Origin: a virus
Taxonomy: Duplodnaviria > Heunggongvirae > Uroviricota > Caudoviricetes
Reading direction: 5' to 3' (one strand)
DNA length: 11,357 nt
Virus record (IMG/VR): IMGVR_UViG_2698536339_000015
Positions within the stretch are counted from its first letter, which is position 1. Each line of letters opens with the position of its first letter. Shown here piece by piece: positions 1 through 8,810 of this stretch. The notes below the pieces were generated by a model. That model was given only the letters and a program-made list of their open reading frames with translations. It searched no databases and was not told where the DNA came from. Both the position numbers and the translations under genes were made by a program.

Positions 1-1074
1 TCATTTATTGATTTCAATTTTGTCCCATTCTCTCCCTCGGCTGTCCCTATACCGCGCCGCCATTGAATCTGATTTATGCCCGAGAAGACGTTGAGCAAAC
101 TTATCGCCAATCTGATTCCGGTATAGCCTCGCCGACAGGCTACGCAGTTCATGGAATGTTGGCGGGTCTCCATCAAATGAGAGTCCAGATGCATTTCTCG
201 CCTTTGTAAAATACTTAGATACTGTTTTCGGGGAAAGCGGTTCGTGATGCGTTGATGCAATTATTGTTTCACTGCCGCTGGCCTCCCTGCATTTCTGTAG
301 TGTATCAGCCAATGAGATATTGAGCGCGTCAATCGTTAGCGTCAGCGGAATGGCGAGCTTAGCCCCTGTTTTACCCTGCTCAATGTGAAGATGGTTGTCG
401 TTTATGTCTGACCATTTCATTCTGCATAAATCGCCTACTCTCTGCCCTGTAACGACAGCCAAATCCATTGCCAGCCTCAGCCAGATTGGGAGATGTTCGG
501 CTGCATGGTAAATCGCGACATACTCATTAGCTGTCAGCCTTGAGCGCCTTACTTCTGACTTTGCTGCGCGGGTTGCTGTTACCGGATTCGTTGCCACATG
601 CCCCTCGGCTATTGCCTCACGAAAAACGTCAACAAGGGTTGACCTGATTACTCTTGCGGACGCTGCTTTACCTTCTGCGACGTAGGTGTTTAGCATTGCA
701 GCCACCTCTTTCGTTGATATGTCAGTGAGCGGTTTGTCCGGCAATTTTCTTCGGATTGCCCTGATTTTGCTGGCGTAGTCGAGTAGAGTTTTCGGTCTGA
801 TACCCCTTTCGGTGAGGATTGTTTCATATCGGTCAAGCCACGTATGAAGAGTGATTGTGTCAGCGCCTTTAATTCTGTCTATCAGTGACTCCCGTCCGCT
901 GTCTGAGAGTAACTCAATGTTGGCCTGTATTGCTTCAGTGATTGCTATCCTCCTGTCTCTGCCTAATCCGAACTCTTTACCCGTCCTTGGGTCCCTGTAG
1001 CAGTAATATCCATTGTTTCTTATATAAAGGTTAGGGGGTAAATCCCGGCGCTCATGACTTCGCCTTCTTCCCAT
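1..1074 (-). CDS. int: Tyrosine site-specific integrase, lambda Int family (357 aa, complete; stop at window position 1-3)
   Basis: Full ORF with ATG at 1074. N-terminus MGRRRSHERRDLPPNLYIRNNGYYCYRDPRTGKEFGLGRDRR and C-terminal catalytic region (HELRSLSARLY...LLGHKSDSMAARYRD) match lambda Int from memory. Residues ~55-170 (arm/core-binding region) are strongly diverged from lambda. Confidence 0.95.
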   Translation of the reverse strand: MGRRRSHERRDLPPNLYIRNNGYYCYRDPRTGKEFGLGRDRRIAITEAIQANIELLSDSGRESLIDRIKGADTITLHTWLDRYETILTERGIRPKTLLDYASKIRAIRRKLPDKPLTDISTKEVAAMLNTYVAEGKAASARVIRSTLVDVFREAIAEGHVATNPVTATRAAKSEVRRSRLTANEYVAIYHAAEHLPIWLRLAMDLAVVTGQRVGDLCRMKWSDINDNHLHIEQGKTGAKLAIPLTLTIDALNISLADTLQKCREASGSETIIASTHHEPLSPKTVSKYFTKARNASGLSFDGDPPTFHELRSLSARLYRNQIGDKFAQRLLGHKSDSMAARYRDSRGREWDKIEINK

Positions 1075-1270
1075 TTCTGATCCTCTTCAAAAGGCTACCT
1101 GTTACTGGTCGATTTAAGTCAACCTTTACCGCTGATTCGTGGAACAGATACTCTCTTCCATCCTTAACCGGAGGAGGGAATATCCTGCACTCGCGTACCC
1201 ATCGACGAACTGTTTCAGGGCTTCTTGGGCGTCGCTGGCGTGCGTTCCACTCCTGAAGTGTCAAGTACAT
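1052..1270 (-). CDS. xis: Excisionase Xis (72 aa)
   Basis: MYLTLQEWNARQRRPRS...KRIRNGKKAKS is nearly identical to lambda Xis from memory. It overlaps the int start by 23 nt, as in lambda. Confidence 0.92.
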   Translation of the reverse strand: MYLTLQEWNARQRRPRSPETVRRWVRECRIFPPPVKDGREYLFHESAVKVDLNRPVTGSLLKRIRNGKKAKS

Positions 1271-1323: not shown

Positions 1324-1348
1324 AACAAAAAAGGAGCCGAAGCTCCTT
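1324..1348 (-). terminator. Rho-independent terminator (minus strand) directly downstream of the AntA-like gene
   Basis: Minus-strand RNA AGGAGC-UUCG-GCUCCU (6-bp stem, UUCG tetraloop) followed by UUUUUU, 7 nt after the stop codon at 1355. Confidence 0.55.
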
Positions 1349-1354
1349 TGATGA

Positions 1355-1978
1355 TTAAAATTCGAATTGTCTCGCCCGAAGGCTTTTCAGCATTGGTCTT
1401 GCCCGTTCGAAAAGGGCGCTTGTCTGGTCAAGTCGTGTCGCCTCCCTGAGCAGTGCGTCTCTGTTTTTCGTCACCGTGTAGAAAGTCTCAAACGCGATGT
1501 CATACAGCTTGCTCGAGTATGATGAGTTCAGTTCCTTCAATATCGGATACAGGCGTTTGCTGATGTCCTGTGCTTTCTCCATCTGTACCTGCATGTAGCA
1601 GAGGAGGATGATTTCCTCGTCTGTGAATTGCTGCGCTGGTTGCATGCTGCGAAGTTTCTTTTCGCACTCGATGAAGTATCGGCGTATCTGGCGGCCTTTT
1701 TCGTTGCGCTCGACCATTGCCAGCTCTTTGGCTGTGTCGAGGGTGAGGTGGTAATCCTTGCGGTTGTGACCGCCTCTACCAGATGTTTGCTTTCCCAAAT
1801 TGGAAAGCAAAATATAGTCTTGATTTTCAATGAATTCGTATTCTGAAATGCGATTTGTAATCCATGCCGCAAACACCTTTTTCACGCCTAAAAAAGCATG
1901 CAGATCGCGGGCATTGCAGAGTAGGGCTGTTTCGTTGGCGATAGTGCCGTTGAATACGGGGATGAGTTGACTGGTCAT
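1355..1978 (-). CDS. AntA/AntB-type antirepressor-domain protein (207 aa); N-terminal ~100 aa resemble the phage AntA domain, C-terminal half unassigned
   Basis: ORF with ATG at 1978 and AAGGA 7 nt upstream. N-terminal pattern LIPVF...ARDLHAFLGV...FAAWITNRI..YEFIENQDY...YHLTLDTAKELAMVERNEKGRQIRRYF recalls AntA-family proteins. Family assignment is from memory, not a search. Confidence 0.6.
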   Translation of the reverse strand: MTSQLIPVFNGTIANETALLCNARDLHAFLGVKKVFAAWITNRISEYEFIENQDYILLSNLGKQTSGRGGHNRKDYHLTLDTAKELAMVERNEKGRQIRRYFIECEKKLRSMQPAQQFTDEEIILLCYMQVQMEKAQDISKRLYPILKELNSSYSSKLYDIAFETFYTVTKNRDALLREATRLDQTSALFERARPMLKSLRARQFEF

Positions 1979-2191
1979 TTTTATGTCCTTTGCATTTGTT
2001 CAGATAGCCCTGTGTTCAGCAGGGCGGTCAGGTACTTGAACACCGTGCAAAGTCGGCCCGTATCCTTAACCTTTCGGTTGTTTTTCGGTATACGCGCTAC
2101 CCGACCATATCTGAGAAATGGACATAAAAAAGCCGCATGACTGACGGGTGCGGTTTCCGCTTTGCAAGGTGTGTTCAGCACCATGAAGCGG

Positions 2192-2221
2192 AATATAGCC
2201 CCGTTAATGCGGATTTGTCAA
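2192..2221 (-). promoter_or_regulatory. Candidate sigma70 promoter (minus strand) about 210 nt upstream of the AntA-like gene
   Basis: Minus strand TTGACA (2221..2216), 18-nt spacer, TATATT (2197..2192). Exact -35 consensus and 5/6 -10. Confidence 0.45.
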
Positions 2222-2300
2222 ATCATGTGGTCTTTATCTTGCTGTAAGCCGCGCCATTCGGTCTTTTCCCCCAGATTTGGGGAAAACTATCTTGTCAAAA

Positions 2301-2861
2301 TCATGCAGCCTTTCGTTCTCCTTCGATGAGTTCCTCGATCTTGTGCACTCCCGCCTCGTTGTAGCGAAATGTCTCGACCTGCTTGTCACTGTGCGCCGAT
2401 TTGTCGATGAACCACTTCCCGTACTTTTCTGTTTTGAGCATGTAGGTGTTGGCAATGCGCCCTACCTTGTTGGCTGAAATGCCAAGCATGGTGCCAACCT
2501 CCGACGCAGAGTAGTGATGTTCATCAATGACCGGAAGAGGGATTGCACTAAAGCCGACGACGGGATTAATCAGGCTGGCGGCAACGACCTGTTTAGCTTC
2601 CGGTGCGAGGTGAGGGAGGAAGTCGAAGAGGTCTTTCATTGTGTCGACGGTCATTTTCAATGCGCGTGCCTTACGGAATTCTTCAAGGCCATCCGGTGAT
2701 TTCTTCGTGGTCGTTTTTTGTTGCAACTGCTGTTGCATTGATTCAAGTTTGTCGACCAGCGAACGACGGACGGCTTTCGACTCACGTGCGGCGACGCGCA
2801 GGGCTTGCTTGTAGGTCATCACTATAACCACCTGATCCGCTCCGCCTTTTTTCTTATCCAT
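2301..2861 (-). CDS. Phage regulatory/antirepressor-like protein (186 aa as an intact ORF); C-terminal region reminiscent of KilA-C/ANT-type domains
   Basis: ORF with ATG at 2861 and no SD. Protein-like sequence continues in-frame upstream through a TGA to an ATG at 3044 that has a good RBS. Confidence 0.5.
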   Translation of the reverse strand: MDKKKGGADQVVIVMTYKQALRVAARESKAVRRSLVDKLESMQQQLQQKTTTKKSPDGLEEFRKARALKMTVDTMKDLFDFLPHLAPEAKQVVAASLINPVVGFSAIPLPVIDEHHYSASEVGTMLGISANKVGRIANTYMLKTEKYGKWFIDKSAHSDKQVETFRYNEAGVHKIEELIEGERKAA

Positions 2862-6315: not shown

Positions 6316-6448
6316 TTTTGGGGACTCCTGGCTGATTAAGTATGTCGATAAGGCGTTTCCATCCGTCACGTAATTTACGGGTGATTCGTTCAAGTAAAGA
6401 TTCGGAAGGGCAGCCAGCAACAGGCCACCCTGCAATGGCATATTGCAT
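6308..6448 (-). CDS. cIII: CIII (FtsH inhibitor protecting CII), 46 aa, 8 residues shorter at the C-terminus than lambda CIII
   Basis: Hand translation from the ATG at 6448: [46 protein letters not shown] then TAA at 6310..6308. AAGGAG lies upstream of the ATG. The frame continues KTYGYPDK after the stop. Confidence 0.8.
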   Translation of the reverse strand: MQYAIAGWPVAGCPSESLLERITRKLRDGWKRLIDILNQPGVPKNG

Positions 6449-6520
6449 GGTGTGCTCCTTATTTATACATAACGAAAAACGCCTCGAGTGAAGCGTTATT
6501 GGTATGCGGTAACGCCGCGC

Positions 6521-7344: not shown

Positions 7345-7671
7345 TCAAATAAGTGGTTTGCTGCCTAATTTCATTTTCTGGCGACCAACACAAGTCACAC
7401 CCATTTCACTGCGTGGCTTGCTGTACCATGTGCGCTGATTCTTGCGCTCAATACGTTGCAGGTTGCTTTCAATCTGTTCGTGGTATTCAGCCAGCACTGT
7501 AAGGTCTATCGGATTCAGTGCGCTTTCTACTCGTGATTTCGGTTTGCGATTCAGCGAGAGAATAGGGCGGTTAACTGGTTTTGCGTTTACCCCAACCAAC
7601 AGGGGATTTGCTGCTTTCCATTGAGCCTGTTTCTCTGCGCGACGTTCGCGGCGGCGTGTTTGTGCATCCAT
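7345..7671 (-). CDS. N: Antitermination protein N, 108 aa from the ATG at 7671 (the ORF track extends 26 codons further upstream)
   Basis: MDAQTRRRERRAEKQAQWKAANPLLVGV...LQRIERKNQRTWYSKP matches lambda N including the arginine-rich boxB-binding motif. The last ~22 residues (RSEMGVTCVGRQKMKLGSKPLI) differ from lambda. Confidence 0.9.
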   Translation of the reverse strand: MDAQTRRRERRAEKQAQWKAANPLLVGVNAKPVNRPILSLNRKPKSRVESALNPIDLTVLAEYHEQIESNLQRIERKNQRTWYSKPRSEMGVTCVGRQKMKLGSKPLI

Positions 7672-7829
7672 CTGGATTCTCCTGTCAGTTAGCTTTGGTG
7701 GTGTGTGGGAGTCGTAGTCCTGAACGAAAAACACCCCGCAATGGCACATTGGCAGCTAATCCGGATTCGCACTTCCGGCCAATGCTTCGTTTCGTATCAC
7801 ACACACCAAAGCCTTCTGCTTTGAATGCT

Positions 7830-7892: not shown

Positions 7893-7941
7893 TGGCTAAA
7901 TAGTACGATTTGTACTTTATCGAGTCAATACAAAATGTTCT
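7893..7941 (-). promoter_or_regulatory. pL promoter with oL operators: -35 TTGACT (7928..7923), 17-nt spacer, -10 TACTAT (7905..7900), TSS near 7893; operator inverted repeats at 7902-7916 and 7927-7941
   Basis: Promoter elements read on the minus strand. Downstream of the -10 the sequence becomes lambda-like (ATCAGCAGGACGCAC...). AGTACGATTTGTACT is a perfect inverted repeat overlapping the spacer and -10. Confidence 0.65.
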
Positions 7942-7991: not shown

Positions 7992-8021
7992 GGAAAAAGA
8001 AAACCCGACGCTAAGGTCGGG
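7992..8021 (-). terminator. Rho-independent terminator (minus strand) downstream of cI
   Basis: Minus RNA CCCGAC-CUUAGC-GUCGGG (6-bp stem) followed by UUUUCUUUUU, 33 nt after the cI stop. Confidence 0.5.
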
Positions 8022-8053
8022 TTATTGTTGTGTGTTTTAGAGTTGTGAGGCTG

Positions 8054-8749
8054 TTAACTAAATGTCTCTTCAGGCCACTGGCTGGCGATAACTTTCCCTA
8101 CTACGGAACAGCTATCATTGCATGGAATCATTGGATATTGCGGGTTTAGTGGCTGTAGGAACACCTGACCGCTATCCCTGATCAGTTTCTTGAAGGTAAA
8201 CTCGTCACCACCAAGTCTGGCTATGCAGAAATCACCTGGCTCAACAGCCTGCTCAGGGTCAACGAGAATTAACATCCCGTCAGGAAAGCTTGGCTTGGAT
8301 CCTGTTGGCGCGGTCATGGAATTACCTTCAACTTCAAGCCAGAACGCACAATCACTGGCTTTTTTGGTTGTGCTGACCCATCTCTCCGCATCACCTTTGG
8401 TAAAGGTTCTAAGCTCAGGCGAGAACATCCCGGCCTGAACATGAGAAAAAACAGGGTACTCATATTGTTTTTTAACGGGGGCAGATGAGTATTCGCCAAC
8501 AGGTGAAAATGTACCGTCGTGGTTGAATGAGACGTTATCAATACCAAGGTATTTAAACACCACACCAATCTCGTCAAGAGATGGATGACGAGATCCGCGC
8601 AACCAGTGACCAATTCCACCCTGCGTCATACCAAGCTCTTCAGCTAACTTCTCTTGAGTTATGCCGAGCTCTTTCATTCTGGATCTAGCCAGTTCATACC
8701 ATTTCATTTTCATACCCTTATTATTACGCTCTGTACTAAAACCATCCAT
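8054..8749 (-). CDS. cI: CI-type prophage repressor (231 aa from the ATG at 8749): non-lambda HTH N-terminal domain plus lambda-cI-like S24/LexA-type autocleavage C-terminal domain
   Basis: From [30 protein letters not shown]... to the end matches the lambda cI C-terminal domain (including AGMF and GNSM). The N-terminal ~95 aa are unrelated to lambda cI but contain an HTH ([25 protein letters not shown]). Start is uncertain: TTG at 8755, ATG at 8749 (possibly leaderless like lambda pRM), or ATG at 8713/8707 after AAGGG. Confidence 0.85.
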
Positions 8750-8810
8750 GCACAAGATGTATTTTTTGTTTGCATTCTAAAAGTACATATCGTATTATTG
8801 TTTCATGGTT
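8750..8810. promoter_or_regulatory. oR/pR/pRM region: pR -35 TTGCAT (8770-8775), 17-nt spacer, -10 TATTAT (8793-8798); operator AGTACATATCGTATT (8782-8796)
   Basis: Divergent intergenic region between cI and cro. The operator repeat has the same AGTAC-N5-GTAyT architecture as the oL site and overlaps the pR -10. Confidence 0.55.

Follow-up and report, generated by a model that had tools for sequence, protein, structure and literature searches.

The control of some phage antirepressor genes by small RNAs is well described. In P1, the C4 RNA is needed to keep ant off in lysogens (PMC8198154), and a passage of PMC10732415 places the antirepressor of N15 under negative control by the small CA RNA. 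In Gifsy-1, the short IsrK RNA, a product of partial termination, unlocks AnrP translation 139-fold (PMC4825925). C4 and the CI RNA of P4 are RNase P substrates (PMC5499578); IsrK and C4 correspond to seqA and CI of P4, and the system is common to P4, P1, P7, N15 and some lambdoid prophages (PMC3632133). Here we describe a cassette in an 11,357-nt stretch of a Caudoviricetes virus (IMG/VR record IMGVR_UViG_2698536339_000015; the whole stretch is called the window), where an antirepressor gene, ant, follows a leader with an RNA of the sRNA-Xcc1 family. An earlier description made from the letters of this DNA alone (the sequence-only reading) overlooked the 207-nt leader and its structured RNA. 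We propose that the cassette is a C4-like antisense-RNA lock on antirepressor translation, and we consider this likely. By analogy, it would be a system of the same kind as immI of P1 and P7, the anti-immunity operon of N15 and IsrK-orf45-anrP of Gifsy-1.

The cassette lies on the minus strand, and its leader extends from the inferred transcription start (about 2185) to the ant ATG. It begins with a hairpin, GGUG-CUGAACA-CACC (2182..2168), recognized in the sequence, whose loop shows target box a1 (UGAACAC, 2177..2171), complementary to box a2 described below. Then follows target box b1 (UGCAAAG, 2166..2160), the upstream copy, which is the exact complement of b2. Next comes a promoter-proximal terminator (2153..2126), composed of CCGCA (2153..2149), an 11-nt loop, UGCGG (2137..2133), one C and six U residues (2131..2126). 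An alternative mini-hairpin, GCGG-AAA-CCGC (2160..2150), overlaps both this terminator and b1. Further downstream, a covariance-model search with cmscan finds an sRNA-Xcc1 family RNA (RF02221) at 2106..2018, with 69.3 bits against a gathering score of 53 (E=3e-11) and with model positions 1-87 of 87 covered. Its closing stem of 9 bp (2106..2098 / 2034..2026) encloses hairpins 1 and 2 and is followed by the 3´ tail GCCC (2025..2022). The loop of hairpin 2 reads ACUUUGCA, and seven of its eight nucleotides form antisense box b2 (CUUUGCA, 2052..2046), which is hypervariable among relatives. Antisense box a2 (UGUUCA, 2042..2037) is part of the single-stranded stretch GUGUUCAAG that joins hairpin 2 to the closing stem. 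Directly 3´ of the RNA, a hairpin GCCCUG-CUGAACA-CAGGGC (2025..2007) carries an extra copy of the a box in its loop; relatives have other stems at this place, CACCAG/CUGGUG and CCACCAC/GUGGUGG.

The third set of boxes is situated at the translation start. The target at 2002..1986 consists of a´ (UGAACA, 2002..1997), two A residues and b´ (UGCAAAG, 1994..1988), and it overlaps the Shine-Dalgarno (SD) sequence of ant, AAGGA (1990..1986), in which GGA stands 7 nt before the ATG. The distance from the 3´ end of the RNA (2018) to this start codon (1978) is only 39 nt. Two features are suggestive of RNase P processing: GCCC (in relatives ACCA or ACCC) comes directly after the 9-bp closing stem, and the 5´ context UAUG|G is conserved. 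The flanks of the RNA, 2108..2125 and 1983..2006, can also pair with each other (AUGUCC...UCAGAUA on the 5´ side with UAUCUGA...GGACAU on the 3´ side), and in an unprocessed precursor such pairing would sequester the GGA of the SD sequence in cis. The flank pairing is present in the closest subfamily (L010) and absent from leaders of the L009 type. An ATG open reading frame (ORF) of 67 aa spans the whole leader (1981..2184, minus strand); as it matches neither a Pfam nor a PHROG family, it is most likely spurious.

In the window, exactly three places match the bipartite pattern TGAACA-N(0-8)-TGCAAAG, where 0.01 are expected, and none of 200 shuffles reaches three. Two matches have the sense orientation (2177..2160 and 2002..1988) and the third is their complement inside the sRNA; the rest of the window holds no further copy. 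The first target copy lies about 10-25 nt past the inferred transcription start, with its a half in the loop of the GGUG/CACC hairpin. The accessible 22 nt of the sRNA are predicted to form a duplex of -15.2 kcal/mol (7+6 bp) with the SD site, and the same 22 nt a duplex of -23.6 kcal/mol with the upstream a1/b1 site.

Eighty viral contigs with Ant homologues of 65-100% identity provided 35 distinct leaders. Within subfamilies, the sRNA scaffold is nearly invariant while the loop box differs, and both target copies change along with it. For at least 11 different b boxes, loop, SD site and upstream site all match one another, and in 11 of 13 classes cognate pairing of the RNA with the ribosome-binding site (RBS) exceeds every other pairing. 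The variant of the window has the loop CUUUGCA, SD site UGCAAAGGAC and upstream site UGCAAAGCGG. The loop UUUCGA goes with SD site UCGAAAGGAC and upstream site UCGAAAGCGG, CUUUGAAG with CUUCAAAGGAGG and CUUCAAAGCGG, CCUAUAUU with AAUAUAGGAGG and AAUAUAGGCGG, CUGUUUGU with ACAAACAGGAGG and ACAAACAGCGG, and CAUAGAU with AUCUAUGGAGG and AUCUAUGCGG, always in the same order. The loop boxes CUUAUUUG, CUUGUAAG, CUGACG and CUCACUGA have their own matching sites each, and where the window has UGCAAAG, another cassette has CUUCAAAG.

The same protein can also stand behind another type of leader. Ant homologues L001, L005, L009, L010, L042 and L077 have the sRNA-Xcc1 leader, whereas L055, L068 and L075 have an isrK plus C4 leader at the same distance from the ATG; in L053 and L055, one protein variant follows leaders of different type. 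A three-way match exists in the C4-type relatives too, with CCACUUAG in the RNA against two copies of CUAAGUGG. RNAalifold on MAFFT-aligned leaders returned no consensus structure, as differences in loop length shift the register, and leader structures were therefore counted by a per-sequence hairpin census in its place. One relative, L042 (700..1500), contains two tandem cassettes with different boxes (UCGAAAG and CCAAAAG-type). Its first ant is cut after residue ~89 (AKELAMV), exactly at the start of the promoter of the second cassette. From its sequence, this break suggests recombination at a conserved motif, and it explains the annotations "antirepressor, N-terminal part, pseudogene" in Stx phages.

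The pattern extends far beyond these relatives. Scanning one genome per bacterial species for the core pattern of the RNA gave at least 120 loci; all counts for distant loci, here and below, refer to the matches listed. These include Pseudomonas, Xanthomonas, Neisseria, Bartonella, Haemophilus, Desulfovibrio and Azospirillum, and 17 of the 18 loci checked pass the Rfam gathering score of sRNA-Xcc1. We defined a three-way box as a hairpin-2 word whose complement occurs both upstream and downstream of the RNA. Of 78 distinct loci, 60% have such a box of at least 6 nt, compared with 2.35% of 6006 non-cognate pairings; for a box of at least 7 nt, the shares are 33% and 0.5%. Two boxes in correct antiparallel order occur in 43/83 loci (1.75% of controls). 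The end of the downstream box usually lies 8-11 nt ahead of the start codon, with the box extending into the SD sequence. The upstream part of the leader is preserved as well: a T-run lies between b1 and the RNA in 42/47 loci, a hairpin abuts the T-run in 43/45 leaders with about 19 different stem arms, and 34/45 leaders have the 5´ hairpin that presents the a box, with covarying stems GGUG/CACC, GGAG/CUCC, GAGG/CCUC and GGCG/CGCC. The loop of the promoter-proximal terminator (2148..2138 in the window) shows a motif CCCG(A/U)NAG that is conserved across very distant taxa. A conserved terminator loop is unusual, and it could be a contact site for a protein or an RNA.

Downstream of the RNA, 36 proteins were scanned, 35 from distant loci and the AntA/P22AR_C protein of the window itself. 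The domains found are Rha (7), Bro-N (5), ORF6N (3), P22_AR_N (2) and AntA (2, one of them that of the window), which Iyer, Koonin and Aravind reportedly described in 2002 as related domains of antirepressors and phage regulators. Two proteins are SymE toxins and about 15 have no Pfam family. The symE genes behind an sRNA-Xcc1 with three-way boxes are most likely those at L160:333-530 and L178:1991-2209, and the same RNA lock thus appears to serve a type I toxin as well as antirepressors.

From these observations we suggest the following course of events. The promoter of the cassette would be constitutively active in the lysogen. Most of its transcripts would end at the proximal terminator and give a leader RNA of ~60 nt, an outcome we somewhat favor, and the transcripts that read through would give the stable RNA of ~89 nt. 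This RNA might be released by RNase P at its tRNA-like closing stem with the RCC(C/A) tail, as are C4 and P4 CI; we see this step as evenly balanced. The free RNA would then pair with a´/b´ and block 30S binding, so that ant translation is off, and of this step we are quite confident. There are two possible roles of the upstream a1/b1 copy, which do not exclude each other. Firstly, it may be a decoy or competitor able to unlock translation, like the short IsrK RNA, a suggestion we make tentatively. Secondly, the RNA bound to b1 might sequester GCGG (2160..2157), so that CCGC pairs with the downstream GCGG and the terminator forms, in a negative feedback like that of P4; we offer it with similar reserve. 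When the lock fails or is titrated, Ant would be made and, by analogy, would inactivate a phage repressor and promote induction or anti-immunity. The variable box would give each cassette a specificity of its own. During induction, pL transcription with N antitermination would be expected to pass both terminators and to shift the ratio of RNA to target.

An alternative is P4-type control, in which the RNA would act chiefly on transcription. Its pairing with a1/b1 and a´/b´ of a nascent transcript would bring about early termination, be it at the proximal terminator, through Rho or both, and the block of translation initiation would be secondary. A second copy of the terminator's 3´ arm, GCGG, stands beside b1, so RNA binding to b1 plus CGG would free CCGC for the terminator, which is itself conserved in 42-43 of 45-47 leaders. 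P4 CI RNA works through seqA and seqC (PMC3632133). On the other hand, b´ sits directly on the SD sequence, as expected for translational control, and leaders with CCAAC-type terminators lack the GCGG/CCGC alternative. We therefore regard termination as the primary mechanism as improbable, bearing in mind that the two mechanisms are not mutually exclusive. In P1, the translational block causes polarity. For P4, action of the CI RNA via seqA and seqC was reportedly described by Briani and colleagues in 2000.

In E. coli O157:H7 EDL933 (CP008957), a homologous cassette with the box CAAAUAAG lies at 1394707..1393949 on the minus strand; its sRNA-Xcc1 is directly upstream of "phage antirepressor Ant", and no phage gene is annotated upstream of its promoter. 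RNA-seq and ribosome profiling of EDL933, as given in a table of PMC5331693, contain an sRNA-Xcc1 of 89 nt on the minus strand with 40,293 transcriptome reads, an RPKM (reads per kilobase per million) of 25,609 and a ribosome-coverage value of 0.02. There it ranks among the most abundant non-translated RNAs of an uninduced culture, above CsrB (same table of PMC5331693). It is probably the copy upstream of ant, judged by matching length and strand and by its being the only sRNA-Xcc1 entry noted in Table 1. In Xanthomonas, the founder of the family is a discrete 88-nt species on Northern blots, according to a passage of PMC2996969. Both data sets support transcription from the cassette's own promoter during lysogeny and indicate that its product in the lysogen is a stable non-translated RNA, while the architecture predicts that Ant protein is not made there. 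The sequence-only reading had considered expression of the gene in the lysogen possible. What remains of this is the leader RNA, probably abundant without induction in the EDL933 homologue; expression of the protein is not supported, as two single-stranded boxes of the leader RNA are complementary to the SD region of ant, an arrangement that leaves the antirepressor untranslated in P1 (c4-icd-ant), N15 (CA RNA) and Gifsy-1 (IsrK). The cassette most likely expresses a repressor RNA, not a protein, in the lysogen.

An abundant and discrete RNA (parts of PMC5331693 and PMC2996969) is also what one would expect if sRNA-Xcc1 acted mainly in trans on host genes, as the literature on Xanthomonas and Xylella has it, and merely shared the promoter of ant. 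Target predictions have been published (a passage of PMC12189769), and the Xanthomonas copies lack an SD-proximal site. This explanation is quite unlikely in our opinion, as the variable boxes follow the two sites of their own cassette (60% of loci against 2.4% of controls), the window offers no other copy of the bipartite site, and a seed that varies so strongly cannot be reconciled with a conserved host regulon; the RNA may act in trans in addition.

The borders of the cassette are relevant for the next alternative. The sequence-only reading saw here an autonomous unit of promoter, gene and terminator, and in this it was right. The promoter was confirmed in place at 2221..2192 of the minus strand, with the -35 hexamer TTGACA (2221..2216), conserved in close relatives, an 18-nt spacer and the -10 hexamer TATATT (2197..2192); its position puts the transcription start at ~2185/2184. 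It is a sigma70-like site with a match of 11/12, the top-scoring of eight in the window. The match alone is within chance, since an 11/12 site appears in 19% of first-order Markov resamples of the window, and we judge the promoter real because its position is conserved in relatives. Close relatives keep the position of both hexamers, with CATACT, TATACT or TATGAT at -10, and TTGAC is found 5´ of b1 in 34/47 distant loci against 6% of random 75-nt windows, at a median distance of 54.5 nt (55 nt in the window). At the other end, an intrinsic terminator, AAAGGAGC-UUCG-GCUCCUUU with a run of six U residues (1349..1327, minus strand), begins 5 nt past the ant stop. It folds with -14.4 kcal/mol (z=-3.8), and none of 200 shuffles is as stable. 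Hairpin and U6 are thus real, and only the distance of 7 nt from the stop given before needs a trivial correction, for the GGAGC stem starts 8 nt after it. The terminator is identical in every relative with the MLKSLRARQFEF C-terminus, across three different downstream contexts. The cassette can therefore be considered a portable unit, because its terminator travels with the MLKSLRARQFEF C-terminus whatever lies downstream.

The gene between these borders is the 207-aa ORF at 1978..1355 (minus strand, ATG at 1978), taken from the ORF list and the sequence, and it encodes an AntA-domain protein as previously stated: Pfam AntA (PF08346) covers residues 22-92 (E=1.6e-26, 93.1 bits against a cut-off of 27). 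Its C-terminal ~100 residues, left without assignment by the sequence-only reading, received one in the homology search. P22AR_C (P22_AR_C, PF10548) matches residues 115-176 (E=1.9e-8, 34.7 bits against a cut-off of 22.4), and PHROG 377, "anti-repressor Ant", matches over the full length (E=3.4e-93, residues 1-207 on profile positions 1-213 of 213). A sequence search for solved structures gave chance-level matches only and no structural relative. Judged by these profiles, Ant is an ordinary member of the antirepressor family with both domains assigned, and the family annotation suggests that it inactivates a phage repressor. The searched literature yielded no experiment on this Ant subfamily. 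P22-like Ant proteins aid induction (Fogg et al. 2011, for the ant of Phi24B). The Phi24B ant (Fogg et al. 2011) was considered as a counterpart and rejected: it is a different gene, located in the pR´ region and without a leader RNA. The 24B_1 microRNA-size RNA of Phi24B was rejected likewise, for it comes from a different locus, between lom and vb_24B_43; it is said to regulate the antirepressor d_ant, which lies downstream of R in Phi24B.

A promoter and a terminator that bracket the gene and travel with it, together with a homologous leader that is probably transcribed in an uninduced lysogen, would also suit a plain moron, that is, Ant made constitutively in the lysogen as an exclusion or anti-defence factor, with the leader RNA irrelevant or a stabilizing 5´ untranslated region. 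We consider this very unlikely. Without RNA-RNA pairing at the RBS, it is difficult to account for a three-way covariation in which the SD region takes part, the protein belongs to an ordinary antirepressor family with both its domains assigned, and a constitutive antirepressor would, as reasoned from known antirepressors, destabilize lysogeny. The exclusion or anti-defence cargo suspected in the sequence-only reading thus finds no backing, as nothing found points to either function.

In classical type I toxin-antitoxin systems, the antitoxin RNA is the labile partner. An addiction module, in which a stable RNA is the antitoxin of a harmful downstream protein and stabilizes the prophage or mobile element, is hardly credible here in spite of the SymE-family genes behind the RNA module (2/36 proteins scanned), the symE in the most widespread Xanthomonas integron cassette (a passage of bioRxiv 10.1101/2025.06.18.660453) and the ~15 downstream proteins without a Pfam family, given that the cargo of this locus is of antirepressor type, as in about half of the loci, and that sRNA-Xcc1 appears abundant, where the EDL933 figures speak of abundance and not of half-life.

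Several points weigh against the antisense lock on translation, and we gather them here. Between sRNA and ant there is no small ORF resembling icd or orf45; the target lies on the SD sequence of ant itself. Homology of sRNA-Xcc1 with C4 is not shown by covariance models: the Rfam C4 model (RF01695, clan CL00128) has no match in the whole window at E<=1 and none at E<=10 in a lax-filter search of 301 nt, the isrK (RF01394) and c4-a1b1 (RF03163) models have no match in the leader at E<=10, and sRNA-Xcc1 belongs to no Rfam clan. We therefore file the RNA under sRNA-Xcc1 and say that it works like the C4 kind, not that it is a C4 member. The 72-nt leader folds no better than its shuffles, so the leader structure is supported by comparison across relatives and not by energy. 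The hairpin of the proximal terminator is weak (5 bp with an 11-nt loop) and falls below the threshold of the terminator scan, and the predicted SD-proximal duplex is short. The identity of the EDL933 locus is deduced, as the assemblies are offset by ~2.6 kb and 2.2 kb of EDL933 was scanned. Approximately 40% of the family loci have no detectable three-way box by the criterion used. In the Xanthomonas locus L144 (2380..2080, minus strand), read base by base, the SD-proximal target copy is absent; L144 retains the TTGACA promoter, the a1 hairpin, b1, the terminator and the RNA, and downstream of them are an ORF of unknown function and then a SymE-like toxin gene. The three-way box is likewise absent in the other Xanthomonadaceae loci L087, L094, L096, L110, L115, L150, L169, L172 and L182. 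Finally, the repression, the processing and the role of the upstream copy are put forward from analogy and covariation.

The location inside a pL operon, part of the sequence-only reading, agrees with the surrounding genes: the cassette is embedded co-directionally in a left arm of lambda type. Upstream of it, all co-directional on the minus strand, lie the gene of an S24/HTH-type CI repressor (8054..8755), N (7345..7749), the lambda cIII thermoregulator element (RF01804, matched over its full length at 6403..6461 with 88.5 bits in Rfam), Kil, Gam, RecT-type Bet and YqaJ-type Exo. Downstream are the excisionase gene xis (1052..1270) and the integrase gene int (1..1074). A hairpin just past the cI stop (8002..8023) was flagged on both strands and has a clean T-run on the minus strand only, and a promoter-like TTGACT-17-TACTAT stands upstream of N on the minus strand (7900..7928); their positions fit a tImm-like terminator and pL. 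Directly upstream of the cassette, a 186-aa ORF (2301..2861, minus strand) matches PHROG 1726, "anti-repressor", at positions 76-264 only and, by its sequence, looks like an N-terminally shortened second antirepressor gene. A hairpin UUUUCCCC/GGGGAAAA (2264..2286) follows its stop. Among 5,426 complete E. coli genomes, 571 have matches to parts of the cassette, and 74 hold at least 80% of it; many Stx-converting phages match as well. The cassette of E. coli AMSHJX01 (CP030939) is 100% identical.

A broader interpretation is conceivable, although we rather doubt it: the whole sRNA-Xcc1 family might be a portable, re-addressable antisense lock, with a hypervariable code of 7-8 nt and a semi-conserved second box present thrice per cassette. 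The family is found from Stx-type prophages of enterobacteria to Pseudomonas, Neisseria, Bartonella, Desulfovibrio and Xanthomonas; its code would be written as the decoy, in the RNA and on the ribosome-binding site. If this is true, prophages in one host would have orthogonal locks where their codes differ, and the codes would define groups of anti-immunity specificity. A superinfecting element that carries the code of the resident could be silenced by the resident RNA, or its decoy leader could unlock the resident antirepressor and cause induction, also that of Shiga-toxin prophages. The trans-acting, virulence-linked interpretation of sRNA-Xcc1 in plant pathogens would then need revision. 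It is plausible that prophages can be induced, and toxin released, independently of SOS through an RNA lock on an antirepressor, and the hypervariable box makes specificity and cross-talk between co-resident prophages simple to test. The quantitative three-way covariation across taxa ties sRNA-Xcc1, known from the virulence literature on Xanthomonas and Xylella, to the immunity RNAs C4, CI and IsrK. In the titles, abstracts and passages searched on sRNA-Xcc1, no link of this RNA to C4 was found; the Pas sRNAs (bioRxiv 2026) are unrelated.

How does the cassette compare with each of the known systems? The founder of RF02221, sRNA-Xcc1 of Xanthomonas campestris, is of the same Rfam family, resides in an integron cassette with symE and shares the leader plan of TTGACA, a-box hairpin, b box, terminator and RNA; in contrast to the window, it has been described as trans-acting, controlled by HrpG/HrpX and associated with virulence. 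In Xylella fastidiosa, passages of PMC12189769 report sRNA-Xcc1 regions at 1,313,466-1,315,082 of Temecula1 and 1,323,982-1,324,381 of De Donno, five tandem copies ~381 bp apart in one strain, and sRNA-Xcc1, isrK and C4 adjacent on one strand in another. These arrangements fit the view that sRNA-Xcc1, isrK and C4 are one functional system.

P22 immI resembles the cassette in that a small antisense RNA, sar, blocks ant translation at the RBS (a passage of PMC10732415). The Ant proteins of P22 and the window share the P22AR_C domain. The sar RNA is a true cis-antisense RNA, read across the start of ant on the other strand, and Arc and Mnt serve as further repressors in P22. The RNA of the window is encoded upstream on the same strand and would pair via short boxes. 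P4 immunity is similar in having a processed leader RNA (seqB) flanked by complementary copies upstream and downstream; its CI RNA is an RNase P substrate (PMC5499578) and the structural equivalent of IsrK plus C4 (PMC3632133). The difference is that P4 controls transcription termination of a replication operon and not translation of an antirepressor.

In Gifsy-1, IsrK-orf45-anrP likewise belongs to a lambdoid prophage and has its own promoter with a partly read-through terminator. It gives a short leader RNA and a long, translationally silent antirepressor mRNA, which the short RNA unlocks in trans (PMC4825925). There, the lock is an intramolecular structure acting via orf45 coupling, and the RNA families are isrK and C4 (PMC4825925). 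The immI region of P1 and P7 (c4-icd-ant1/2) has, as we propose for the window, an antisense RNA that is encoded in the leader, constitutive and processed and that holds a secondary antirepressor off in the lysogen (PMC8198154). P1 works via icd translation and polarity on ant, whereas the window has no icd-like ORF; the RNA families differ by covariance model, and the window element belongs to a lambdoid prophage with an S24-type CI. Triplets of short boxes, a1b1/a2b2/a´b´, are said to set the specificity and to differ between P1 and P7, reportedly a result of Citron and Schuster from 1990.

The N15 operon is the most detailed parallel. The Rfam isrK/c4-a1b1 element lies at 28502..28414 and ends in a hairpin with U7, C4 lies at 28388..28301, and the ant genes antA-antB-antC follow. 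As in the window, the order is a promoter, a hairpin with the a box in its loop, a b box, a hairpin and U-run terminator, an RNA of ~87 nt and antirepressor genes. Direct reading of the N15 leader shows that its loop UCUCAAC and the following ACAAGAAG complement the C4 junction GUUGAGAA and hairpin-2 loop CUUCUUGU. Several differences exist. The RNA of the window scores as sRNA-Xcc1 and not as C4, and the sRNA-Xcc1 model in turn has no match to N15 C4 at E<=1; the leader of the window is not isrK/c4-a1b1, which N15 and the relatives L055, L068 and L075 match, and in its layout, with target copies ahead of a terminator, it is the functional equivalent of these elements. Hairpin 1 is longer in the window, with an internal loop AAUACAA...GGGGAAU, the leader has one 5´ hairpin where N15 has two, and the target is on ant's own SD sequence and not on a small upstream ORF. 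A coupling ORF such as icd of P1 or orf45 of Gifsy-1, carrying the target between RNA and ant, is missing here. The two RNAs nevertheless agree in the closing stem, the two hairpins, the complement of the b box in loop 2 and that of the a box in the 3´ junction, the tail of ACC(C/A) type (ACCC in N15, GCCC in the window) and the UAUGG 5´ context. The locus shares several traits with C4/CI-type systems: an RNA encoded on the same strand in the leader, complements of its short boxes upstream and, at the start site, downstream and, by annotation, an antirepressor or lytic regulator as the regulated gene.

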